Below are positions 333-29,340 of a stretch of DNA of 64,000 bases, piece after piece. The DNA comes from a virus, in UHGV virus genome UHGV-0038492; one strand, given 5' to 3'. Position 1 is the stretch's first letter; each line of letters begins with the position of its first letter. The translations under genes were made by a program, and so were the position numbers. The notes beneath the pieces were generated by a model. It did not search any database, had not been told where the DNA came from, and saw only the letters and a list, made by a program, of their open reading frames with translations.

Positions 333-2113
333 TTAGTGAGTGGTTTTGATGTATTCAAACGGATCGGTAACGGTTTCTCCCTGACGACGTAAGAATGCTT
401 CTAACACAACGTTCTTATCCGGCAGTAAGAAGAAGTCCGTTGCGATTTCCATTGCATTAACACGCCCTGCGGTAAGGTTAATCCCTACACGACGACGTAC
501 TTCTTCAGGAACACCATGAATACTCAGCAACTCGATTAACGTTGTTTCACGAGACTGGTTCATCATGTTCGTTGCAGAAGGATACGCCTGGGTTAAGTCC
601 GCATCTGCGGTTTGCCCACGGAAAGCAGTGTAGAAATCATCAAACTCTTTAATGATTCCTCGCAGACCGTTTTCTGCGTTCATACACGCAGTTAACGTAA
701 CAATCCAACCGTCCGTACCGATAACTTCTTCATCGAAATCATTACGCATTGCACTACCTACACAACCGATAACCAATCCTTGTTCATAAAGGTAATAGGT
801 GTAAGCAATACAAATACGTTTTGGTAACGAAGGGAAGATATCGTACATCGAATAACCTGCCAGTACGGAAATTGCCGAAGACAAGTCGTTCGTCTTTTTA
901 TCCAACAACACAATCATCAGGTTATCGAAGATGTTATAAACGCAGTATTCGAGCGGGAACTCTTTCTGTGCTTTTAAGTGCCATTCCAGTTTCTCCTCGT
1001 AAGGCAACTCTGGCAAGTCTAACTTGTTTAAGCCCAGTTCGGTTTCCAGAATAGCGTTAAGTTTGTAAGAAGGACGTTGGCCTTCGTGAACACGCAGTGA
1101 ACGAAATAGACACATTGCATCCACACAGTAGAACGATGCGGTACAATAAAGTACGTGCCACTGTTGTGAAGGTGCTTTGGTCAGTGATTTCGATTCCGTT
1201 TTCTTCGATGCTTCGTCTTTCTTGAAGTAAACACGACGGTATTGTTTCGGTACATCAGGATGGCAAAAGACGTCTTCTGGTGGAATCCCTGCGGCTTCCA
1301 GTGCTTCTAACATGCGTGAAATATCGAACTCGTGGTTCCATGCAACTAATAAGTCAGGTAGACGAGGGTGAATCTCTTCAAACATGCGTTGAATACAGCA
1401 GCCAGAGTTTAAGCATTCGTAAACGAAGATTTTATATCCGTCGATAACGTCTTTGATTTCAGTCTTAGGATTGCCTTCTTTGTCTTTGCCACGAAAAGCA
1501 ATTTTAGAAAGTAACTCCTTCGCACGTTTAATTAGTCGCGCTTCGAAGTTCTCACGGCCACAACGCGCAACGTAGTCTTTCGTTGCGAAGAAATGAATTT
1601 CGTCATCCAAAACAAAACTCATAATCCAAGGGTCTCGAGATTTGTCTTCTTCTCGAGTTTCCACGTCGTATACACAAATACGGTTAGGTGAAACGGCGTT
1701 AGGCCATTTCTTTACATACCTTTCTTTAATCCAGCTGGTGATAGGTAAGTCAGCCCAGTATACGTACGGAGAGGTACAGACTTGGCGTAATGAACGTTTT
1801 TTGTCAGGAAATCTTGCCCCTAGACCCATCTGGATAGTTTGTGACATCATCACATCCGTGGTCATGTATTCCTGACACTTACTGCGTTCTTCGTATTCTT
1901 TCTTTTCTTGATGGTTACGGTGTTGTGGTAAAGTAATGTAGATAGGCCGTTTCAGATTTTCACGCATGACGATACGCGGGATGAATCTGCCATCTTTAGT
2001 ATGGACGACCTCCTTTATGAGCACGAAGTCGTTTTCTTTCTGCTGATCGGTTGCGTACGAAACAAATTTGCACTCTTTGGCAATAACGTCTTCCGGTGCG
2101 TAATAGTTATTCA
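333..2113 (-). CDS. family-B DNA polymerase-like protein with 3'-5' exonuclease domain (possible fragment of a split polymerase)
   Basis: Translation shows ExoI-like VYDVETRE, ExoII-like AWNHEFDISRML and ExoIII-like YCVDAMCL in order; weak motif-A-like YDIFPSLP; no motif B/C seen. Start set at MNNYYAPE (ATG 2111-2113) rather than track start 2249, which would overlap the divergent gene. Confidence 0.5.
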
Positions 2114-2185
2114 TGTTTTCACTCTCAAATCTAGCGGCTGCTATACTGATTTGTGGGTAATGTAATTTCTCAAAAGGAAACACAA

Positions 2186-3520
2186 ATGGGATACTGGCAA
2201 AATCACATTGCATCAGTTGCGGATGCAAAGGTTGTAGCCGCAGAATCAATTAAATTCCAAGATAAAAAGAAACTCGCAGAACTGGCAGACATTATTGCTA
2301 AATTTCGTGCAGCCGGAGACTTCAGTCCGGCCGGTTACGAGAGTTCTGGCGTTTCTGATTGGGTATTTAAAACCAACGGCATTAGCATTAACTTTAAGAA
2401 CGGTAGCGAACTCGGATTATTCGACGTTGCCTTCGCAGGTGTAGAACCGCCTAAACTGGACGCGAACAGTCCGGTCATTGCGTCAATGGCGCGTGCACTG
2501 TACGCAGGCAATAAAGACCTGGATATGTACAGTAAGTTTATTAAAGAAAACGAACTGAACAGCACCATTGACGATTCCAGTGCGAAAATCAGCGGTGATT
2601 TAAGCAAAGTCGCTTCCCCGCTCTATCTGACTCCGGTGTTGTTAGAGAAGCTGGAGCTGACCGATTTGGAGGTTGCTGCGGTAATCCTTCACGAAGTCGG
2701 GCACGTTTATTATTACTTCCGTACGCTGATGCGAACCGTGGTAACGGATTTACTGGCAGACGCTGCGGCTAACCGTATCATGGAAAGCGAAGACCCAGCT
2801 GTTCGTTTACGTGTGGTTAAAGACGTTGAACGAATGCTGAACACGAAAGTGAATCAGCCTGAGACCATCTGCACTGAGTACAAGAAAGAAAACGTCTACA
2901 TGCATCTGGTAACAGATTTGCTGTTAGACCGTCCGTTCATTACCGGTAGTCAAGGCTTTGCAAACCGTACCTGGGAACGTGCTGCTGACGACTTCGCTGC
3001 CCGTTTTGGTGCGGCCCCGTACTTAGCTTCTGCGCTGTACAAAATGGAAACCAGCCCGTTCTATCTACTGCGTAACTCGTCGTATATGAACATGGGCGTC
3101 CACCTGACGATTGAGTTGTTCCGTGTGACTGCGCTGATTGCTCAAGCCGCCATTCCGATTCTTCCGGTTATCTCTGTTACGTTCGGGATGATTCTGAACG
3201 ACCCAGATAACACCATCTACGATCCGCCGCAGGAACGTTTTGAAGCGATGCGTCGTACGCTGGTAGAAGAACTGAATACCATCAAAGACAAAAACACGAA
3301 AGCGGCTAACGAGCAACGTAAACGTATTCTGGATGGTATCGCGGTAATTGACCGAATTCTCCTTACGGTTAAAGACAAAGATAACCTGTATCAGTTTATC
3401 TGGAAGACGCTGACACCGAAAGGGCGTCGTGACCGTGCTGCGGTGGATTATCAGCGCGCTATCGGGAAGTATATGTCGAATGACCTCCGTATCGCATCTG
3501 CCATGTTTAACGTCGATTAA
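2186..3520 (+). CDS. putative zinc metallopeptidase, M48/M56-like
   Basis: HEVGH (HExxH) followed ~90 aa later by ERAADDFAA (ExxAD-type third ligand motif), then a hydrophobic segment; RBS aaggaaa before ATG 2186 (track start 2153 rejected). Confidence 0.5.
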   Translation: MGYWQNHIASVADAKVVAAESIKFQDKKKLAELADIIAKFRAAGDFSPAGYESSGVSDWVFKTNGISINFKNGSELGLFDVAFAGVEPPKLDANSPVIASMARALYAGNKDLDMYSKFIKENELNSTIDDSSAKISGDLSKVASPLYLTPVLLEKLELTDLEVAAVILHEVGHVYYYFRTLMRTVVTDLLADAAANRIMESEDPAVRLRVVKDVERMLNTKVNQPETICTEYKKENVYMHLVTDLLLDRPFITGSQGFANRTWERAADDFAARFGAAPYLASALYKMETSPFYLLRNSSYMNMGVHLTIELFRVTALIAQAAIPILPVISVTFGMILNDPDNTIYDPPQERFEAMRRTLVEELNTIKDKNTKAANEQRKRILDGIAVIDRILLTVKDKDNLYQFIWKTLTPKGRRDRAAVDYQRAIGKYMSNDLRIASAMFNVD

Positions 3521-3534
3521 GTAAAGGTAAAACC

Positions 3535-3978
3535 ATGACGCATAAAGTTTCTCTGAATTCGTTAGTTCTGGATTTTAAACGTGCTAACGAAGGTAAAGGT
3601 GTTCAGGCGCAGCGTGCCCTGACTGGCCTGGTTGCATTCTCGCTGGCGTATAATGCCGATATGCCAGACAACGGACCGTATGGTTCTAACGAAGTTTCAC
3701 AAATCAAACTTCGTCCACTGATGAAAAACGTGGTATCCGACGTTAACGAGCTTTACTGCGTTGACTTAGGCACTATTGAAGACCTGACCGTTGCGTTGTT
3801 CTGTAACCGTTACGACAGCGCCTGGGGTGGACGTCGTGCAATTGAAAACTTCTCCGTACGTGAGATTTTCAACGAAGCCTTAGGTGATGATGTTTGGAAC
3901 ACCGTCAACCTGTGGCTGGAACGTTTTGTCGACGCAGTGAAATTCTACATGGATGAAACGCGAGGCAAATTATCATGA
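3535..3978 (+). CDS. hypothetical protein (147 aa)
   Basis: ORF with RBS aaaggtaaaacc; stop overlaps next start (ATGA at 3975). Confidence 0.6.
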   Translation: MTHKVSLNSLVLDFKRANEGKGVQAQRALTGLVAFSLAYNADMPDNGPYGSNEVSQIKLRPLMKNVVSDVNELYCVDLGTIEDLTVALFCNRYDSAWGGRRAIENFSVREIFNEALGDDVWNTVNLWLERFVDAVKFYMDETRGKLS

Positions 3979-5648
3979 GCATGGAAATGACAGCAAACAT
4001 TGCACAACCGCAATGGAAACTCGACGAACTTCCAACCATTATCGAACAGCGAATGGAAGAACGTATCGATTCTGTCAGCCAGCTCAACCTCTACATGCAG
4101 CGTAACGAAGCCGATTTGATTTACGGTTCACGTATTATCGCGCAGATTGAAGCGATTCTTCGTGAAGTTCGTAAAGCGGGTCTAAATCGTGACGTTGCCG
4201 TAGCGACGGAATCTTTGCGTCCAGGTACCATTCCAAAAGCAGTGCAAAGCATCCTGACGTCGAATTACAGCCGTACCCATCAGAAAGAAACCGTCATCGC
4301 GTTAGAGTCTTACGCAAACTTCGGTAAGATCAGTCTTATCGTGATGGTAATGATGGGGATTATGAAAATCCTGAACTGGATTATCAGTAACGCTGTACCG
4401 TTTGCAGGGGCTGCTGACGTGGATGGGGACGAGTATCGTGACAAGCTCTTAGAGAAGATCGATGCGGTTCCTTTCTTTGAACGTCTGAAAATTACCGCGC
4501 TGAAAGAAGCGTATATGGACGCATCGAAGGGACTGAAAGACGGCGAACTGAATAACCTGGAATTGGCTATTCTGATGGCGGATGAAGTCCTGACGAACAT
4601 GAACGCGGAAGACCTGCTGAACAAGCTCAGTGCGGCACTGGGTCGTTCTCCGTTCGTAGGGATGTTTAAAGACTACACGAAACGCCGTCAGAACGAACAG
4701 CAGGTTATCCACGATATCCTCGATACGTTGCTGCGTACCAATATCGGTTGTGCAGTATTCAGTCAGCAGGTTTGTGACGAAGTGTACAAAGGTTTACCGG
4801 CGGACGTTCGTAAAGCAGGTGTCAACATTCCTAACGAAGCGTTCTACCGCCAGATGGGAAGAAACCTGGAGAACTTCTCCGCAGGGTTAAAACGTTTAGA
4901 ACAGTCGTTAAAAGACCTCAAGACCTATTACTTCTCGGGTGACCGTAGGCTGGGTACGGATCAAGAAAACCGTATTAGCGCAACGGGCATCGTTCAAGCA
5001 CTGGCGTTGCTTAACGGTGAAATTGAAATAGGGTTAACTGATTTTGCATCGTGCCGTGGCGCACCCTTACCGACGATAATGGTGAAATCCGATCGTGACT
5101 TAATCGGCTATTCATCTCGTGAGTTCGGTAATGGTTTCATTATCGCTTCTGCGGGCGTTAACTCGTATTTCGGTTCTGCGGCTAACATGGAAATTATGCG
5201 CCAGGAGCTGAGCTTTACCAGCGGTGATTCTCGTGAACTGTTAGCGTGTCTGATTACGTTAGCTCGTAGCGGTATTACCAAAGGGCCAGCCGATACGTCT
5301 CTTGACCGTTTCAAAGTGGTAGAGAAACAGATCGAGAAAGTGGTTAGCCAGTTGAAAGACATGTCTCGCCAATCTCGCTCTGGTATGAACAGCAAAGCTT
5401 GGCAGATGATGGAACAAGCGTTCCGTGACGAAGCACAACGTTCAGAACTGTACGAATTGGACATTGGTCGTGAACTGACGACGATGACCGTGATGGACCC
5501 AGACCGAAACGTGTGGGATTCTGTTGCGTTTACAACGGAACTGATTAAGTCCTGGACAACTGCCGCCGGTGCGCTGGCGACGATTCTGAAACGGGCTAAG
5601 AACAACCCGCTGGTAAAAGGTGGGAAGTTTAATAAACTCGTCGACTAA
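3975..5648 (+). CDS. hypothetical protein (557 aa) with one internal hydrophobic segment
   Basis: Long ORF translationally coupled to upstream gene; ends at bidirectional terminator. Confidence 0.65.
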   Translation: MSMEMTANIAQPQWKLDELPTIIEQRMEERIDSVSQLNLYMQRNEADLIYGSRIIAQIEAILREVRKAGLNRDVAVATESLRPGTIPKAVQSILTSNYSRTHQKETVIALESYANFGKISLIVMVMMGIMKILNWIISNAVPFAGAADVDGDEYRDKLLEKIDAVPFFERLKITALKEAYMDASKGLKDGELNNLELAILMADEVLTNMNAEDLLNKLSAALGRSPFVGMFKDYTKRRQNEQQVIHDILDTLLRTNIGCAVFSQQVCDEVYKGLPADVRKAGVNIPNEAFYRQMGRNLENFSAGLKRLEQSLKDLKTYYFSGDRRLGTDQENRISATGIVQALALLNGEIEIGLTDFASCRGAPLPTIMVKSDRDLIGYSSREFGNGFIIASAGVNSYFGSAANMEIMRQELSFTSGDSRELLACLITLARSGITKGPADTSLDRFKVVEKQIEKVVSQLKDMSRQSRSGMNSKAWQMMEQAFRDEAQRSELYELDIGRELTTMTVMDPDRNVWDSVAFTTELIKSWTTAAGALATILKRAKNNPLVKGGKFNKLVD

Positions 5649-5699
5649 AAAAGAAGTACCCTACTCCCGAAAAGGAGTAGGGTAGCTTTTTATTTTTTT
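5646..5699. terminator. bidirectional Rho-independent terminator
   Basis: Stem taccctactcc / ggagtagggta flanked by an A-run upstream and T-run downstream; lies between convergent genes ending 5648 (+) and 5698 (-). Confidence 0.8.
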
Positions 5700-8652
5700 A
5701 GTCTGCGGTGGTGTCGTGACGGTTGTAAACGATAACAACGTCGTCTTTCAGACCGATGTCACCACTGGCTTCAATATCCAGTTTCTTACCAATCGTTGCG
5801 CGTGCAGCTTCGGATACCACAGTAAACAGACGCATGTCTTTGTCTGGACCCATCGCATCCAACTCAACCCCGATGATCGACGTGTCAAGCGTTTCGCTGA
5901 GCTCATTACCAATCTCTGTTGCCGAGATAGTAAGATGTGAACCCAAGTAGTCGTTGATAACTTGAGACGTTTTCTTACGAATCTGCGTTAACAGATCGCT
6001 GTTGCTACGGTTAGCCGCTGTGAGGTAATAACGAACGGTAAACTGGTTTTCAGCCGGTTTCGGCGTCACCACCCCGTCTTCGGTACGTGCATCGATATAA
6101 CCCATCGTGGTGATAGGAACGAAATACCCTTCCGTACGCTCTAACAACATCGGTTTTAACGTCGGTAGAACCACGGTCACGTAGTTAACGATATTCTCAA
6201 TAACTGCGTTCAGATAGGATTTCGCAGACGCTGTGGTAGCGAATTTATAACGTGCGTCGAAGACCGCCATTTCACTACGGAACTTAATAGAACGAGATTT
6301 CGCAATCTTAGGATTACCGTACTCGTCTTTTACTAAGTCCCCTTCGTGGTGCAGGATAATCTGCTGGCCGGTTTCGTCAAGCTTAGGATCGCCTTTACGG
6401 TGTTCGTAAGTGATTTGTAGCGGTGGTGTACGGCCTGCGTCATACGTGTAAACCGGAACCCCATTCTCATCACGTTTCACCACGTCAATTTCCCACGTCG
6501 CTAACACGTCTTTGTCGTAATACTCGTAGTTGATGCTGTCAGTAACAGCACGCGCTTTACGCCAATAGTACGTCATCGCTTTACCCAGTTCGATTTTGAA
6601 TATCTCGTGGGTAATACCGATAGCGTCACGAGAAGGCGCTGTGATTAACGTATCCATCTCTACACGTTCGTAGTTCCCAGGGTAATAACCTGTGCAACCG
6701 TAGAACAGGTTAAAATCTGTCAGCAGTGGAACAGGTGTTTCCGTTGGGTTACTTCCGTTAATGCGGGTGTTGGTCAGTACCAGTTCGTCGTTACGGTCAA
6801 CGTCCAGGTTAGTTTCCAGCAAGAACTCCCAAACACGTTCACTGCCCTGCTTACCGACTAACGTACCGTTAATGTACGCCAAGGTGTTATCGGAATTACG
6901 AGGACGGAAAGACAGCTGTGCAAAGACTTGGTCATCAGTCAGTGCCTGGTAAGGTGCTTCTGACTTCGTAATCGTACGCAACACATAACCTGCTTCCGTT
7001 TTCTCGATAGTGTAGTCAGCAGTAACGACGCTGAGCTCCGTCGAGACGTTGGTCGCAATAAAGCGTTTGGAGTTTAATAGCGGTTTATCCAACTGGTAAA
7101 TACGCACGTCAATCGCTTTGTTGTTAATGTCAACAACGTAATGGAACGGTGTAAACAAATAACGGTTCGTGTTTGCTGCGTTAATCAAGTCTTCCTTACG
7201 CATGGTCTTCGCCAATACCGTCATCTCGGCATCTACAGTCAGACTGGTATCCGTAAAGCGATAGAGTGTGTCAGGAAGAATGGTCAGGCGATTACCGTTG
7301 ACTTTCACTGTCGGAAGATTAACCAGCTCGTTCCAGGAGAAATAGAACGGCGCAGTAATCGTACCAATCGGTGAGCTGACGTTAGCAATCGTCGATTCCA
7401 ACATCGGTGCTGTCATGAAGTACGTACGACTGGTCACATAGTCGTTAGGTTTAGACAGCGTAAGACCGTAATCGGAAACCGTAGCTTCAAGCTGCTTTTC
7501 CGTCACAGGTAATTTACGTGCACCCACAGCGTTATTAACAACGCGAGTACGTAAGTCACTGAACGAGAGCTGACTGCGACCACCCGACAGCATCTTCCCA
7601 GCTTTTGCTGCAAGCTGTTTAATAGAGAATGCTTTAATCGGGTTGATATAGTTCGCGTCATACTCTTCGTTTAAGTCACGTAGACTGAAGCTATACTCAT
7701 CAGACGGGTATGCAGAGATGTCTAACTCCAACGGCCCTAAGGTCGTATAGACGTCCATCCTGATAGTCCCACTGACGAGATTCTTCGCCATGTAAATAGA
7801 TGGAATCGTACAACGGATGTTGCCGTTACCCACCTGAATCAATGCTGTTGGCGTGTTCGGGTCGTAAACATCCCGACTGTGGGTGTGCTGTATCTCTACC
7901 CACTTGTTGCTGCCCGTTGCCTTCATCCAAACACGAACGTAGAAGAACTTGTTAGTGTAAGCACGGGTCATGACGAAAGTGTTGTTACCTTCGACAGTGT
8001 TACTTTCTTCTTTCACCGCATACTGCATAACCGGGATATGAATAGCCAGCAGCTGTGACGACGTTGTGTTAGTGGACGTTAGTTCCCATTCCAGGGCGTT
8101 CGTGGAAACTGGTGAAATCGGCGATTGTGTTTCAGTAATCCACAGTACCTGGAATGCCGGGTTCTCGTTCGTTCCGTATGGAAGTACACGGATTTCGATT
8201 GGGTACTGAATAGCAAACGTGTAACCAGAAACCGTAAAAACAGTGTCACGTGGGATAACGACTTTACGAACCCCCGCGATTTGCAACGGATACGCTTTCG
8301 AGATTAAGCTGTCAACGTCAATTAACAGTAACAGTTCTGTAGTAGCAGGCTGCGCAAAGACGTCAACGTAATCCACGTCTGACATGTGTCGGAACAGGTC
8401 ATCGTAGGTCTGTGCCATTGACGGGAACGTTTTAGGAATAGATTCCTGGAGCCCCATCAACGTCGCGTGTCCCATCATCGTTCCCATTTCTGCCAAATAA
8501 ACGACAGGGTCGGTAGGGTCACGGAGATAAATTTGACCATCGGCATCTTCAACATCTTGAAGCTGGTTTAGCAGCATTGTCTGCATCGCCGCAGGGTTGT
8601 GTGCGAACAGCAGAAGTTTCTTTGCCAAAGTATCGTAAGTTGTTGAACTCAT
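5698..8652 (-). CDS. hypothetical large protein (984 aa)
   Basis: Long ORF; start overlaps stop of upstream minus-strand gene at 8652 (coupled pair); no catalytic motif recognised. Confidence 0.65.
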   Translation of the reverse strand: MSSTTYDTLAKKLLLFAHNPAAMQTMLLNQLQDVEDADGQIYLRDPTDPVVYLAEMGTMMGHATLMGLQESIPKTFPSMAQTYDDLFRHMSDVDYVDVFAQPATTELLLLIDVDSLISKAYPLQIAGVRKVVIPRDTVFTVSGYTFAIQYPIEIRVLPYGTNENPAFQVLWITETQSPISPVSTNALEWELTSTNTTSSQLLAIHIPVMQYAVKEESNTVEGNNTFVMTRAYTNKFFYVRVWMKATGSNKWVEIQHTHSRDVYDPNTPTALIQVGNGNIRCTIPSIYMAKNLVSGTIRMDVYTTLGPLELDISAYPSDEYSFSLRDLNEEYDANYINPIKAFSIKQLAAKAGKMLSGGRSQLSFSDLRTRVVNNAVGARKLPVTEKQLEATVSDYGLTLSKPNDYVTSRTYFMTAPMLESTIANVSSPIGTITAPFYFSWNELVNLPTVKVNGNRLTILPDTLYRFTDTSLTVDAEMTVLAKTMRKEDLINAANTNRYLFTPFHYVVDINNKAIDVRIYQLDKPLLNSKRFIATNVSTELSVVTADYTIEKTEAGYVLRTITKSEAPYQALTDDQVFAQLSFRPRNSDNTLAYINGTLVGKQGSERVWEFLLETNLDVDRNDELVLTNTRINGSNPTETPVPLLTDFNLFYGCTGYYPGNYERVEMDTLITAPSRDAIGITHEIFKIELGKAMTYYWRKARAVTDSINYEYYDKDVLATWEIDVVKRDENGVPVYTYDAGRTPPLQITYEHRKGDPKLDETGQQIILHHEGDLVKDEYGNPKIAKSRSIKFRSEMAVFDARYKFATTASAKSYLNAVIENIVNYVTVVLPTLKPMLLERTEGYFVPITTMGYIDARTEDGVVTPKPAENQFTVRYYLTAANRSNSDLLTQIRKKTSQVINDYLGSHLTISATEIGNELSETLDTSIIGVELDAMGPDKDMRLFTVVSEAARATIGKKLDIEASGDIGLKDDVVIVYNRHDTTAD

Positions 8653-12672: not shown

Positions 12673-13944
12673 ATGGCAAATTTCGCAAAAACTCGCGCCG
12701 CTCGTGAATCAATGGAAGCGGCCGATGAAGTAATCGACGGTATCAGCAACGTTGAACCGGCAGAAGAGAACCTGGACGTCCAGCTTGCAGAAGTAGCCTC
12801 TATGGATGGTGAACTGGATCAGCTGGAAACTGACGGTGAAACTTTGGCCGCCGATACTGAGCGTACTGAAGACGCTATCGATCAGGCGGAAGAAGCCGTT
12901 GCTAACGGTGAAGAAATGCCGGAAGAAGCGGTTGCCCTGCACGAAGTGGCCCAGGAATCCATCGCACGTCGTTGGTGCCTGGAACGTACCAAACTGGCTC
13001 GTGAATCCTATCGCCGTGGCCGTGGCATGACTGCTGCTGCGCAGGAAGGCTGGAAAGAAACCCTGAAAGATCTTTACGATCGTTTCATTCAGTTCTGTAA
13101 AGAAGTGATTGCGAAGATCAAAGACCTGAAACTGAAATATTTCAACGTCGGTAAGACCGCACAGAAACGTGCGAAGAAATATCAGGAAATGCTGCGTAAG
13201 CTGGGCAAACAGAAGAAAGATGAAATCTCTGGTGGCTTTATCACCAAGCTGTCGATCGAAGGTAAATTCGATGCTGCTGGCTCTATCGCTATTGCGAAAG
13301 AAGTTACCGCTGGCAAAGCTAAAGGTTCCATCAGTGTTCTGGAAAAACAAGCTGGTGAAGCTGTGACCGCTGTGAGCAAAGGTGACGACGACGCATTCAA
13401 AGCAATGCGTGGCGATCAGCCGGTAGAACTGTTTGGTAAAGCGGCTTCTAAACTGCACACTCTGCCGAACTTTGAAAAAGGTGATGCGTCCAAACTGCTG
13501 GCTCTGCCGGGCAACGCATACGTTCAGGCTGGTACTAAAGAACTGGCTGGCGGTCACAAGTTCACTGCAATTGCATTCATGAGCACCGGTGACGCGTCTG
13601 AAGATAAAGACGTGAAAACTCCGTCCGTTTCTGAAATGGCTGGCGCTGCTTCTGCTCTGGAAGCAATCGGTAAAGGCTTCGAAGCTGTACTGAAAGATTT
13701 CCGTGCTTATGACGCTGAAATCGTGAAGCTGCAACAGGCTGCTGAGAAAGCTGCTACCGCACTGAATACCGAAAAAGACCAGAGCAAGTGGGATGGCCTG
13801 CGTAATGCACGTCAAGCTGCTGATTGGTCTGTGAAGAACTACCAGACCCTGAACCGCGCCGTTAGCTATGTTGCTAACACCGTTATTAGCGGTCTGAACG
13901 GCTACCTGGGTGCTGGTATCGGTGCTTACGAAAAATCTAAATAA
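12673..13944 (+). CDS. abundant protein, paralog A of tandem pair (putative high-copy virion/head internal protein with acidic N-terminal region)
   Basis: Strong RBS aaggaaa; codon usage strongly biased (ctg, cgt, ggt, aaa, gaa); shares N-terminus MANF.K..ARESME, core RKLGKQKKDEISGGFI and C-terminus GLNGY..AGI.AYEK with the next gene. Confidence 0.55.
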   Translation: MANFAKTRAARESMEAADEVIDGISNVEPAEENLDVQLAEVASMDGELDQLETDGETLAADTERTEDAIDQAEEAVANGEEMPEEAVALHEVAQESIARRWCLERTKLARESYRRGRGMTAAAQEGWKETLKDLYDRFIQFCKEVIAKIKDLKLKYFNVGKTAQKRAKKYQEMLRKLGKQKKDEISGGFITKLSIEGKFDAAGSIAIAKEVTAGKAKGSISVLEKQAGEAVTAVSKGDDDAFKAMRGDQPVELFGKAASKLHTLPNFEKGDASKLLALPGNAYVQAGTKELAGGHKFTAIAFMSTGDASEDKDVKTPSVSEMAGAASALEAIGKGFEAVLKDFRAYDAEIVKLQQAAEKAATALNTEKDQSKWDGLRNARQAADWSVKNYQTLNRAVSYVANTVISGLNGYLGAGIGAYEKSK

Positions 13945-14026
13945 TCATTTAGATTCGTAGTTCCGTACAGTTCTTGAAATAAATCATCAGGGGAACAACG
14001 CGTTCCCCTTAGAGGAAAAGCTTAAA

Positions 14027-15292
14027 ATGGCGAATTTCTACAAAAACAAAATTGCTCGTGAGTCTATGGAGTCTACTTCTACTGTAGTTCCAGACGGCAT
14101 CGAACTGCCAGCAGAATCTGTAGAAGGTACTCTGGCCGATATCGAGCATGACACCAAACCGATCGAAGCAATGGACGCAGACGCAGAGCTGCTGGCCGAA
14201 GACGGCGACGAAACCGATGCTCAGCTGGAAGTCCTGGACGAAGCTCAGGCTGCTGCTGACGGTGAAGGCGCTGAAGACGGCGAAGAGCCGATGGACGCTG
14301 AAGAAGACATGCCGGACGACGCTGCTAAAGCGCTGGACGTTGCTCAGGAATCCATCCGTTCTCGCTGGAACTTCGAACACCGTTCTTCTGTTGCTCACGA
14401 ATCCTACGGTTCTCGTAACCGCCGTCAGGTTGCTCGTGAATCCCTGTGGGAAGACATTAAAGCCTTCATGAAACGTATCCTTGATTGGCTGAAAGAACAG
14501 GGTCGTAAGATCAAAGATCGTTGGCTGAAATTCCACAACCAGGGTAAATCTATCCAGGCGCGTGCGAAGAAAAACGACGCAATTATCCGTAAGCTGGGCA
14601 AACAGAAGAAAGATGAAATCTCTGGTGGTTTCATTAAATCTCTGTCCATCGACGGTAAGTTCGTTGGTGACGACTCCACGAAACTGAAAGGTATTCTGAC
14701 CCAGGTTTCCAGCTTCTATAGCTCTAAAATGCCTTCTATGGCTGCTAAAGCCTCTGCCATGGTTGAAGATGTTACTAAAGGTAACGGCGCTAAGATTGAA
14801 AACCTGAAAGCCGAGTTCGGTGAACTGGCTAAACAAGATAATCTTAAGAACTTCAAGCTCGGTAACATGGCTGTTAAGTCTGAGTACGATAACGAAGGCG
14901 GTTTCTCCACTACCTTCGTTGAGTCTGAAAACACCGTTGAAACCAGCGTGAAAACTCCGTCTGTTGGCGATCTGGCTAAACTCAATGCCTTCTTCAACGA
15001 AGTGGGTAAACAGATTGAGAAGAACGTTCAGGATTATCGTAAAGTTGAAAGCGCACGTAAGTCTTTCGAAGACAGCATCGATAAGCTGCTGAAAGAAATC
15101 GACAAAGTTAAGATCGATGAAAAACCGGAACTGACCGAAAACGTGCGTCGCGCTCGTCGTTACGTTACCAGTGTTAACCAGGCTCTGTCTCTGGGTGAGA
15201 AAGTTATTGCTTCTACTCAGAAACATCTGGCTAACGGTCTGAACGGTTATATCTCAGCAGGTATTGCCGCTTACGAAAAGACTAAAGCTTAA
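14027..15292 (+). CDS. abundant protein, paralog B of tandem pair
   Basis: Same features as paralog A; 41 nt identical to 13195-13235 at 14588-14628; acidic N-terminal region; terminator follows. Confidence 0.55.
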   Translation: MANFYKNKIARESMESTSTVVPDGIELPAESVEGTLADIEHDTKPIEAMDADAELLAEDGDETDAQLEVLDEAQAAADGEGAEDGEEPMDAEEDMPDDAAKALDVAQESIRSRWNFEHRSSVAHESYGSRNRRQVARESLWEDIKAFMKRILDWLKEQGRKIKDRWLKFHNQGKSIQARAKKNDAIIRKLGKQKKDEISGGFIKSLSIDGKFVGDDSTKLKGILTQVSSFYSSKMPSMAAKASAMVEDVTKGNGAKIENLKAEFGELAKQDNLKNFKLGNMAVKSEYDNEGGFSTTFVESENTVETSVKTPSVGDLAKLNAFFNEVGKQIEKNVQDYRKVESARKSFEDSIDKLLKEIDKVKIDEKPELTENVRRARRYVTSVNQALSLGEKVIASTQKHLANGLNGYISAGIAAYEKTKA

Positions 15293-27054: not shown

Positions 27055-29340
27055 ATGAAAGATACCCGAATCTCTAATTTAGAGAAACTCGTAGAAGCCG
27101 GTACTAGTCTGGCCCAAAACGTCATCGGCAACAACACCGCCAGCGAAATGTGGAATACGATTGTTGCAGGCGAGTCCGTACGCAGCAACGCAAAAGTGTT
27201 TGGCGTTCTGCGTGACGAAGCATCACAGCACTATGCCAACGCTTTTGGTGGCAAGAAAATGTCTCATGCTGCGACTGTCGCCTCCGCAATGATTCTGGGT
27301 GCAGCTAACCACGGTAAAGACCTGCAAGAACGTGTTGCCCAGGAATACGCTAAGCCGGAATTCCACACCAAGTATAACCTGGATATTGGTATCCCTGGTG
27401 CGCAAGGTGGTGACTGGGGTCGTGAGCGCATGGTTGTTGCTCAGGAATATTACAGCAACAAAGACTACGACAAAAACCTGGGCCTGACCTGGACCCTGAA
27501 CGTACGTGCTCTGGAAACTCAGTCCAAGTTTGCTGAAACGCTGTTCCCGACCATTACCGTTGACACCAACGATGTTGGTATTACCGTACGTACTAAAGTG
27601 ACTACCGTTTCTCGCGGTATCATGAACGCGCTGCTGAGCAAAGACGTGGTTGAAGACCATCGTCGTCCGCTGCACAACGCACTGACTGACCACACCGTTC
27701 TCCAGGACGAAGCGATCAACATCGTTCCTTACGTAATGGAAACCGGTGAAAACCAGGAATACTTCGTAAGCGAAGAACTGGTTCCGAACGAAAAAGTTCG
27801 CCTGGGTCGTGTACCTCCGTACCCGACTAACTACCTGAGCTTTGCAAACGACACGCTGAACCTGTTCCAGCTGTCTGCGCATCCGGGTATCGTTCAGGAA
27901 GGTTACGATGAAACTGATGAAATCGCACCGGGTTGTGCTCTGGGCAGCCTGCTGATTTCTGTACGTAAACCTGCCGAAGAAGCGAAAGCAGGTAAATTCA
28001 TCAAACTACACGTTCGTGACATGCAGTTCGCAACCTTCCAGCGTCCTGCTGAAGGTGACGGCCGTGAACTGGTTCTGCAATTCCGTCGTACCGCGTTCTC
28101 TCTGAATGCGAAAACCACTGACTGGAAAGGCGACGCTATTCCGGCTCTGCAAGCACTGGGTCAGAACTCCTACACCCTGCGCTACGTTATCACCATCACC
28201 ATGTCCCTGTTCACCAGCGGCCAGTTCGGTGGTAAAGTAGACATTTCCGGCCACAAACTGGAAATCGAAGGTCTGTACGATGCAACTGGTAACAAAGTTG
28301 ATACCAAGTCTGGTACCGGTAAAGTTATCCTGGACGGCCTGAAACTCGAACTGATGGGCTGGCGCTTCGATGGTACTCGTACCAACGAAAACCGTCGTAC
28401 CCAGGGTCTGCTGCTTGACCCAATTTGGGAACAGGAAAACTACAAACTGCAATACGGTTCTCCGATTCTGACCAAGTCTCCGGTTGGTGTTGAATACGAC
28501 GACACTGAACGTCTGGACGACCTGATCTCTGCGGTGAACATCCGTAACGAACAGCTGGCTATTACTCAGACGCTGTCTTACACTGAAGCAGTACGTAACG
28601 CAGCCGCTGCGATGATCACTCCGTGGGACAAACCGGCTATCCGTGGTCTGGGCCGTCACTGGGTTGCTCCGTGGTTCAAAGAGTCTGACTACAAAGTCGA
28701 TGAAGTTGTTCAGTCTCTGGATACCAAAGAAGCGCTGATCAACGCTCGTCAGGGTCTGTTGCAGCGTATCGGTAGCCAGGTAACTCAGGCTATCCAGGAT
28801 TCTCGTTTCATTCCTGCACTGCGCCTGCTGACCGCTGATCCGGACATTCTGCCGAAAGTTATCATCGCAACTGACGAACCGACTGCATCTATGCTGCTGC
28901 TGGTTCAGGGCGACCAACGTCTGCTGGGCGACCGTTATGAATACGAAGTCGTTACCACCAACGATGACCGCTGGCGTATCTACAACGCAGCTGACGATTC
29001 CTGGACTCGTCGTCTGCAATGGTTCCTGAAAGTTCCGACTGCGGACGATGGTTCCTACTGCGTACTGAACTGGGGTAACCACTTCTGGTCTCCGATCATG
29101 GTTACCAACATCAACATCCAGCGTAACGGTTCTACTTCTAAAGAACTGGCTGTACAGCCGCGTAACGCGCATATCTGCCACTGCCCGATCACTGGTCTGA
29201 TTTGGGTTAAAGGCATCACCAAACTGGTTGAAGAAAAACTGGCTTACAACGTTTCTGTAGAACAGAACGGCCAGAAACAAACCGACGGTGGTGTAGCAGG
29301 TAATGTTGCTGGCGACGGTAAAGACAAAGCTGGTAAATAA
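27055..29340 (+). CDS. major capsid protein (phiKZ-like jumbo phage type), putative
   Basis: 761 aa (~83 kDa) ORF with RBS aagg, the strongest codon bias in the window, strong terminator after it; size and composition fit my recollection of phiKZ/SPN3US-type capsid proteins; no search run. Confidence 0.6.
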   Translation: MKDTRISNLEKLVEAGTSLAQNVIGNNTASEMWNTIVAGESVRSNAKVFGVLRDEASQHYANAFGGKKMSHAATVASAMILGAANHGKDLQERVAQEYAKPEFHTKYNLDIGIPGAQGGDWGRERMVVAQEYYSNKDYDKNLGLTWTLNVRALETQSKFAETLFPTITVDTNDVGITVRTKVTTVSRGIMNALLSKDVVEDHRRPLHNALTDHTVLQDEAINIVPYVMETGENQEYFVSEELVPNEKVRLGRVPPYPTNYLSFANDTLNLFQLSAHPGIVQEGYDETDEIAPGCALGSLLISVRKPAEEAKAGKFIKLHVRDMQFATFQRPAEGDGRELVLQFRRTAFSLNAKTTDWKGDAIPALQALGQNSYTLRYVITITMSLFTSGQFGGKVDISGHKLEIEGLYDATGNKVDTKSGTGKVILDGLKLELMGWRFDGTRTNENRRTQGLLLDPIWEQENYKLQYGSPILTKSPVGVEYDDTERLDDLISAVNIRNEQLAITQTLSYTEAVRNAAAAMITPWDKPAIRGLGRHWVAPWFKESDYKVDEVVQSLDTKEALINARQGLLQRIGSQVTQAIQDSRFIPALRLLTADPDILPKVIIATDEPTASMLLLVQGDQRLLGDRYEYEVVTTNDDRWRIYNAADDSWTRRLQWFLKVPTADDGSYCVLNWGNHFWSPIMVTNINIQRNGSTSKELAVQPRNAHICHCPITGLIWVKGITKLVEEKLAYNVSVEQNGQKQTDGGVAGNVAGDGKDKAGK

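Follow-up and report, generated by a model that had tools for sequence, protein, structure and literature searches.

The open reading frame at positions 2186 to 3520 of a stretch of the virus genome UHGV-0038492 most probably encodes an internal head protein of Chimalliviridae-type jumbo phages, orthologous to SPN3US gp45 and phiKZ gp84 and built around an M48-type gluzincin core. Earlier work had described the family of this 444-aa protein both as conserved head proteins (gp45/gp84) and as zincin-like metallopeptidases, and the open reading frame described here is a further orthologue. What is new is the assignment to M48 specifically, the recognition of a transmembrane (TM)-like segment throughout the family, and the operon that the gene shares with the TM-bearing ejection protein gp47. 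The stretch of DNA analysed, which spans 64,000 nucleotides and is referred to below as the window, is about 72% identical at the nucleotide level to Salmonella phage SPN3US (genus Seoulvirus) over the alignable part. The features of the locus are collected in Table 1.

Table 1. Features of the peptidase gene, its predicted product and the adjoining genes (positions in the window; residues numbered in the 444-aa protein).
Feature	Positions	Strand	Residues	Basis or remark
Ribosome-binding site AAGGA	2174..2178	+		7 nt 5' of ATG 2186; read from the sequence
CDS, 444-aa head protein with M48-like peptidase domain	2186..3520	+	1-444	ATG 2186; stop codon ends at 3520
Predicted N-terminal leader, MGYWQNHIASVADAKVVAAE	2186..2245	+	1-20	Conserved cleavage motif, pLDDT step, SPN3US gp45 precedent
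N-terminal helical subdomain of the mature protein	2246..2425	+	21-80	AF2 helices 27-43, 48-52 and 56-64; pLDDT 96-98
M48-like catalytic core	2426..3055	+	81-290	Beta-sheet subdomain, HExxH helix, 90-residue helical insert, Glu-bearing helix
HEVGH motif	2690..2704	+	169-173	Predicted two zinc-binding His (H169, H173) and catalytic Glu (E170)
ERAAD motif	2975..2989	+	264-268	Predicted third zinc ligand E264, plus D268; M48 ExxAD motif
Hydrophobic TM-like segment, VHLTIELFRVTALIAQAAIPILPVISVTFGMIL	3098..3196	+	305-337	Kyte-Doolittle and family alignment
C-terminal helical domain	3212..3517	+	343-444	AF2 helices 348-443
147-aa co-operonic gene	3535..3978	+		SPN3US gp46 orthologue (phrog_8529); same position as phiKZ gp85
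557-aa co-operonic gene	3975..5648	+		SPN3US gp47 orthologue (phrog_8131), 43% identity; start overlaps preceding stop codon
Bidirectional intrinsic-terminator-like hairpin	5657..5684	.		11- to 12-bp stem, T-run on both strands

The ATG at position 2186 corresponds to M1 of SPN3US gp45 in the protein alignment. A longer start for the same open reading frame, the GTG at 2153 proposed by the ORF lister, found no support in that alignment, and the longer version is an unlikely product because ATG 2186 both has the AAGGA and aligns with M1 of gp45.

The 444-aa protein matched phrog_2767 with an E-value of 1.7e-151 over residues 1-442 of 444. It shares 72% identity with SPN3US gp45, which carries the annotation 'putative virion structural protein 1', and is equally close to SEGD1 gp047 (AMR59696.1), the orthologue of the same gene; the match to phiKZ gp84, annotated as 'structural head protein', was more distant (BLASTP E-value of 4e-19, 26% identity). 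SPN3US gp45, SEGD1 gp047 and phiKZ gp84 share with the 444-aa protein the genomic position, an N-terminal A-x-E motif and the catalytic motifs. The present protein comes from another phage, with the nucleotide identity to SPN3US given above, and is no different in kind from the gp45 family. By tblastn, 206 phage records contain the family, and almost all of these are jumbo phages, among others of Erwinia, Pseudomonas, Salmonella, Serratia, Ralstonia, Vibrio and Klebsiella; an exhaustive HMMER scan returned 1,422 clusters at 50% identity. The gene order is fixed: a DNA polymerase gene on the minus strand is followed by the peptidase gene, a gene of about 140 aa and a gene of about 400-570 aa, and then by the convergent gp87-like and gp88-like virion genes, both on the minus strand. 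The same arrangement recurs in SPN3US, phiKZ, Ralstonia RSF1, Serratia 2050HW, Vibrio XC31, Klebsiella FBKp24 and Halocynthia phage JM-2012; Xanthomonas RTH11 preserves part of it. The peptidase gene is thus a core syntenic gene of the phiKZ/SPN3US-like jumbo phages, and for this reason the remark in the preliminary description that such proteases are uncommon in phage genomes does not hold for this lineage. Related 'zincin protease' entries occur even in Bacillus phage AR9.

Iyer et al. 2021 (PMC7824862) had named the SEGD1 orthologue a "conserved, uncharacterized zincin-like metallopeptidase". Machine-made names of family records include 'beta-barrel assembly-enhancing protease', 'M48 family lipoprotein protease' and 'integral membrane metallopeptidase'. 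With the label given to AMR59696.1 and the database names, the family was therefore already on record as protease-like. In the literature searched, no experimental work on the peptidase of the gp45/gp84 family was found, zinc binding and peptidase activity included, and the jumbo-phage, EPI-vesicle, structural, core-genome and review papers searched contained no functional statement on gp84/PHIKZ084, M48 or metalloprotease.

The N-terminus of the protein carries the signs of a processed leader. The junction reads V-A-A-E20|S; E20 is conserved in all 135 relatives aligned (135/135), and 122 of the 135 have S, A or G at P-2. Leader lengths vary from 6 to 30 residues across the relatives, with a mode of 12, and the conserved junction at which the leaders end has the form [S/A/G]-x-E | [A/S]-I-x-[F/Y/H]-Q. 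In the AF2 model, the pLDDT rises from about 50 for residues 1-20 to 96 from residue 21 onward. These features have a direct precedent in SPN3US, in which gp45 (50.3 kDa, 'Head, unknown function') was shown by mass spectrometry to be cut at ASE-20 by the prohead protease gp245, and all experiments detected it in purified virions and in tailless heads (Thomas and Weintraub studies; PMC10052503, Table 2). The 20-residue propeptide of gp45 is the only SPN3US propeptide whose length is comparable to that of T4 capsid-targeting sequences (PMC5694885). [quoted passage not shown] By analogy with SPN3US gp45, the 444-aa protein is itself a predicted substrate of the prohead protease (PMC10052503), the leader would be removed by that enzyme after A-A-E20 in this phage, and residues 1-20 probably act as a capsid-targeting sequence.

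The T4 gp21-type serine prohead protease (SPN3US gp245, phiKZ gp175) is also found in the prohead of the same phages. Its catalytic class and fold are unrelated to those of the M48-like protein, in line with the preliminary description, which had set the putative peptidase apart from the expected serine prohead protease; it cuts gp45 and is not replaced by it (PMC10052503).

Downstream of the peptidase gene, the orthologues of SPN3US gp46 and gp47 complete a three-gene unit, which is closed against the convergent gene 5698-8652 by the hairpin listed in Table 1; no comparable hairpin is present between positions 2186 and 5648. The SPN3US gp47 protein is essential, and virions of its amber mutant look normal and are non-infectious. 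It is cut at ALE-111, the mature protein begins with a predicted TM helix, and its authors inferred that it is an ejection protein interacting with the host membrane (PMC5694885). The orthologue in the window keeps the ALE-111 site and has, shortly after it, a TM-like helix (residues 119-137) with a 19-residue Kyte-Doolittle (KD19) value of 2.16.

Within the predicted mature peptidase, the N-terminal helical subdomain opens with the conserved [A/S]-I-x-[F/Y/H]-Q motif, and the 90-residue insert that separates HEVGH from ERAAD in the catalytic core is amphipathic and helical. The hydrophobic stretch that had been noticed after ERAAD is indeed present, at residues 305-337, where the best 19-residue Kyte-Doolittle window reaches 1.9. 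Across the family, this is the most hydrophobic stretch of the protein (70% strongly hydrophobic and 6% charged residues, median best KD19 window of 2.17), and 96 of the 135 members have an uncharged run of at least 18 residues in it. It is at the same time the part of the protein with the lowest conservation, with an entropy of 3.05 bits over the 135 relatives. Since the hydrophobic character is kept and the sequence itself varies, the segment bears the signature of a lipid-facing helix and not that of a specific protein core. The C-terminal helical domain begins with the motif Y345-D346-x-P-x-x-R351, in which R351 is invariant and Y345 and D346 are conserved in at least 90% of the 135 relatives.

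Packaging in the capsid narrows the roles offered in the preliminary description, host takeover or the processing of membrane proteins, to two options: action within the capsid, or delivery by ejection. We tentatively prefer the second option, in which the gp45-type protein would be an ejected, membrane-acting peptidase; this reading, drawn from context, is plausible while falling short of probable. It is favoured because the protein is retained in mature virions, has a TM-like segment and shares its operon with an ejection protein. In such a scheme, the leader would direct the 444-aa protein into the prohead, where the serine prohead protease would trim it and uncover the conserved A/S-I-x-F-Q N-terminus. 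A competent zinc endopeptidase would then be stored within the DNA-filled capsid and, like its operon partner gp47, ejected along with the DNA. The TM-like segment at residues 305-337 could anchor the peptidase in the host inner membrane or in the membrane of the early infection vesicle, where it may cut host proteins close to that membrane or phage proteins that were ejected as well. A more specific version, in which the peptidase and the gp47-like protein enter the inner membrane together and cleavage of host or phage membrane proteins forms, maintains or later opens the lipid early phage infection vesicle, is improbable as it stands.

The other option, that of an enzyme acting inside the capsid, corresponds to a second maturation protease of the prohead, which would degrade released propeptides or scaffold-like fragments, or add cuts of its own, for exit from the capsid. 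A maturation role was put forward for the SEGD1-type zincin by Iyer et al. 2021 (PMC7824862), and it agrees with the fact that gp45 is a head protein processed alongside other core head proteins, as well as with the need to clear propeptides of 111-254 residues from SPN3US-type heads (PMC10052503). Loss of the short leader could activate a zymogen, the new N-terminus being highly conserved, and propeptides degraded to small peptides would go unseen in virion proteomes. However, all 14 of the 14 mapped SPN3US head cleavages fit the AXE motif of gp245, with no second specificity reported (PMC10052503), and gp45 stays in mature virions and is not cleared. Moreover, a maturation protease would leave the family-wide TM-like segment without a role, and the operon partner gp47 is an ejection protein and not an assembly factor. 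We consequently regard a maturation role as rather unlikely, and favour delivery by ejection.

Whichever role applies, the peptidase assignment stands on profile and fold comparisons. The only Pfam family matched by the 444-aa protein at E<=1 was Peptidase M48 (PF01435), with an E-value of 9.6e-4 and a score of 19.5 bits against a gathering cutoff of 20.3 bits; neither M56 nor M78 appeared in that search. Among 100 diverse relatives, 35 matched PF01435 at E<=0.01 (best E-value of 3.4e-6), none matched M56 or M78 in Pfam at the same threshold, and SprT-like was the sole other zincin family matched, weakly and by 2 of the 100. The NCBIfam search added a 13-bit HtpX fragment match only. A profile built from the 135 relatives found human ZMPSTE24 among the PDB sequences with an E-value of 3.9e-5, in an alignment that pairs HElGH with HELGH and 'RsfEqlADqFA' with 'RRFEFQADAFA', whereas phmmer with the single 444-aa sequence against PDB sequences gave nothing meaningful. 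When the same 135-relative profile was compared by hhalign with an alignment of BepA orthologues (18 sequences), the probability was 91.9% and the E-value 6.9e-7 over 83 columns, corresponding to query residues 90-175. This alignment covers the beta-sheet subdomain, that is, the N-terminal half of the domain; HEVGH pairs with HEISH of BepA, and the family-invariant G137 falls on the invariant N-A edge-strand motif of BepA. Against single BepA or HtpX sequences, the hhalign probabilities were 38% and 79%, over no more than 29-37 columns surrounding HExxH. The PF01435 alignment ends at profile position 164 of 186, so that the last 20 or so positions of the M48 profile are unmatched in the 444-aa protein. 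The idea that YDPPQER (residues 345-351) represents the displaced C-terminal end of the profile was probed with four constructs in which the hydrophobic insert was deleted and which were rescored against Pfam; the alignment was not extended and the score shifted by at most 1.4 bits, and the idea was dropped.

The structural comparison points in the same direction. The AF2 model of the 444-aa protein had a pLDDT of 89.6 and a pTM of 0.90, and the top five Foldseek matches in the PDB were all ZMPSTE24 or Ste24, with E-values that were non-significant (at least 0.14). No enzymes other than M48 structures stood among the top fold matches of the model, and a BFVD search connected the family with entries named 'Peptidase M48 domain-containing protein' and with the AR9 'Zincin protease'. 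The predicted fold is thus closest to M48 zincins, in agreement with a gluzincin fold. Together with the profile matches, it supports the view that the 444-aa protein is an M48-like zinc metallopeptidase. The zincin identity claimed in the preliminary description is accordingly supported, and the outcome named there as grounds for rejecting it, a lack of significant M48, M56 or M78 profile matches together with a fold unlike that of zincins, did not arise. Of its wording 'M48/M56-like', the M48 part stands, given the matches to PF01435, ZMPSTE24 and BepA, and the M56 part falls, as neither the query (E<=1) nor the 100 relatives (E<=0.01) gave a Pfam match to that family.

A zincin outside M48, whether M56, SprT-like or a separate clade peculiar to phages, as with the metallopeptidase domains found in polyvalent proteins, would account for a query score that lies under the Pfam M48 cutoff, for the weak SprT-like matches of two relatives and for the wording of Iyer et al. 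2021, who say 'zincin-like' only (PMC7824862). The position of the hydrophobic segment also differs from that in M48A or M48B. Ste24 has seven TM helices, and HtpX has TM pairs located N-terminal to, and between, the two motifs; unlike these membrane proteases, the phage protein has a single hydrophobic segment, which comes after the Glu helix. Nevertheless, M48 was the only repeatedly matched family, the ExxAD helix pairs with that of ZMPSTE24, the BepA comparison reached 92% probability, and M48 supplied every enzyme among the top fold matches, with M56 and M78 unmatched. There is, in our judgement, only a slim chance that the protein lies outside M48.

The catalytic residues complete the case for an M48-type enzyme. 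The observation that HEVGH is followed by ERAAD some 90 residues later proved exact, the distance from H173 to E264 being 91 residues, with a range of 90-96 residues across 135 homologues. H169, E170, G172, H173, E264 and D268 are invariant in all 135 of these homologues, in an alignment with a mean column identity of 25%, and HExxH is present in 147 of the 150 best library matches. In the AF2 model, HEVGH lies on a predicted helix at residues 160-199 and ERAAD on another at residues 256-288. A chance origin of the motif pair was rejected on two grounds. Only one of the 104 stop-to-stop open reading frames of at least 100 aa in the whole window (26,419 aa) contains HExxH, namely that at 2186-3520; and when its protein was shuffled, HExxH arose in 0.26% of the trials and both motifs at the observed spacing in 0.0045%. 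As read from the sequence, the M48-type catalytic set is complete, with H169, H173 and E264 as predicted zinc ligands, E170 as the putative general base, and D268 in addition; we infer that the protein can act as a zinc endopeptidase. Pseudo-enzymes usually lose their catalytic residues. Descent of a catalytically inert structural or ejection protein from a zincin, with which the literature label 'Head, unknown function' (PMC10052503) would agree, is therefore very improbable, since H169, E170, H173, E264 and D268 are invariant over 135 relatives that share about 25% identity, with a motif spacing that stays within 90-96 residues.

Compared with cellular M48 enzymes, that is, ZMPSTE24/Ste24 (M48A), HtpX (M48B), BepA and small soluble M48 enzymes such as PDB 3c37, the group that supplied the best profile and fold matches, the phage protein has in common the HExxH helix, the ExxAD helix and the beta-sheet with its edge strand. 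It differs from them in the 90-residue helical insert between the motifs, in the extra N- and C-terminal helical domains, and in being a leader-bearing protein packaged in the capsid; a TPR domain is absent. HExxH zincin domains are likewise found inside phage heads in the polyvalent proteins N4 vRNAP and P1 DdrB, for which in-head processing or action after injection has been proposed (Iyer et al. 2017, PMC5512222). Those zincins, however, are domains of giant multidomain proteins and belong to clades unrelated to the classical families, whereas the phage protein studied here is a stand-alone, M48-like protein of 48 kDa.

Some 50 different proteins are packed into the heads of phiKZ-like jumbo phages, most of them without a known function. 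The gp45-type peptidase is one of the few packaged head proteins with a recognisable enzyme fold, and the M48 assignment, the intact active site, the TM-like segment and the operon shared with gp47 turn it into a concrete, testable hypothesis for a head protein. Action at a membrane after ejection, if true, would bear on how jumbo phages build their first protective compartment. The vesicle role, should it apply, would make this the first enzyme assigned to the step of the early phage infection vesicle around the injected Chimalliviridae genome.

Finally, nine longer proteins were found to carry the peptidase domain, as rare metagenomic variants fused to other modules. Six longer metagenomic proteins, extended at the N-terminus by 370-1,035 residues, keep the [S/A/G]-x-E junction described above just before the peptidase module, which suggests that the module is always released with an identical N-terminus. 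The nine longer proteins gave no Pfam matches. With PHROGs, P0020 matched the gp47 family and P0065 and P0086 weakly matched other families, and the remaining six matched nothing outside the M48 module. P0020 was rejected as a Rosetta-stone link to gp47, as its BLASTP match is a propeptide-like stretch of about 100 residues that includes an ALE site and not a full fusion; its 7.8-kb contig retains separate downstream genes.

Longer relatives of the M48-like peptidase were found in metagenomic data, six of which (P0020, P0034, P0088, P0096, P0095 and P0065) carry 370–1,035 additional N-terminal residues and keep an x-x-E|[A/S/G]-[I/V] junction directly before the peptidase module, as if this module were released from a polyprotein. 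Moreover, residues 392–491 of P0020 show a sequence likeness to the gp47-like protein's propeptide region (E 7e-9), which takes in the latter's ALE site for the serine prohead protease and hints at a capsid-targeting module common to both proteins.

The gp47 orthologue encoded in the window retains this prohead-protease site as ALE-111, directly followed by a TM-like helix (residues 119–137; KD19, the 19-residue Kyte-Doolittle value, 2.16). The start codon of the gene and the stop codon of the preceding 147-aa gene (3535–3978) overlap. Beyond the 3' end of the gp47 orthologue lies the perfect hairpin, which has T-runs on either strand and resembles an intrinsic terminator acting in both directions.

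Features of the window and of the contig carrying P0020
Feature	Coordinates	Strand	Remarks
DNA polymerase ORF as listed	333-2249	-	TTG start
Orthologue of SPN3US gp47	3975-5648	+	gp47 is an essential head ejection protein
Perfect hairpin	5657-5684		11- to 12-bp; flanked by convergent genes with their ends at 5648 and 5698
Internal head protein genes, phrog_2497	12673-13944; 14027-15292	+	two tandem paralogues
Major capsid gene	27055-29340	+	
Very long antisense ORFs	12709-13815; 14009-15226; 28006-29280	-	368-424 aa
P0020	2846-6466 (contig L014)		

When the AF2 model of the peptidase was searched against the BFVD library of predicted viral structures, two proteins of Bacillus phage AR9, both named 'Zincin protease', were matched (A0A172JHV9, E 3.6e-5; A0A172JI27, E 9.3e-3). 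Judging from these modelled structures, the family may reach past the nucleus-forming phages into the AR9/PBS1 group, where it is possibly represented by two paralogues.

In many assemblies of enterobacterial isolates, the annotation 'hypothetical protein' is attached to the exact peptidase protein (2186–3517) and to proteins closely related to the major capsid protein (27055–29337), a result that by implication would extend to the whole window. The isolates include Salmonella Enteritidis, Chester, Newport, Kentucky and Braenderup, as well as E. coli, Shigella and Enterobacter; the contigs bearing the peptidase and capsid records measure approximately 222–227 kb, and the 90%-identity clusters of the two proteins comprise 384 and 378 members. 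Thus, this jumbo phage of approximately 225 kb seems to accompany isolates in culture, whether in a carrier state or pseudolysogeny or through recurrent contamination. This phage was not found in the phage collection searched, whose top match showed approximately 72% nucleotide identity.

The tandem phrog_2497 genes are probably the counterparts of those for gp53 and gp54, two abundant ejection proteins of SPN3US. Like the major capsid gene, each tandem gene contains one antisense ORF of striking length, probably a non-coding by-product of codon usage.

Finally, the listed DNA polymerase ORF overlaps the start of the peptidase gene, and its resemblance to the SPN3US polymerase extends only from residue 46 (MNNYYAPEDV) onward. 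The true start is probably an ATG near 2114, a position that would give a divergent intergenic region of 71 bp.
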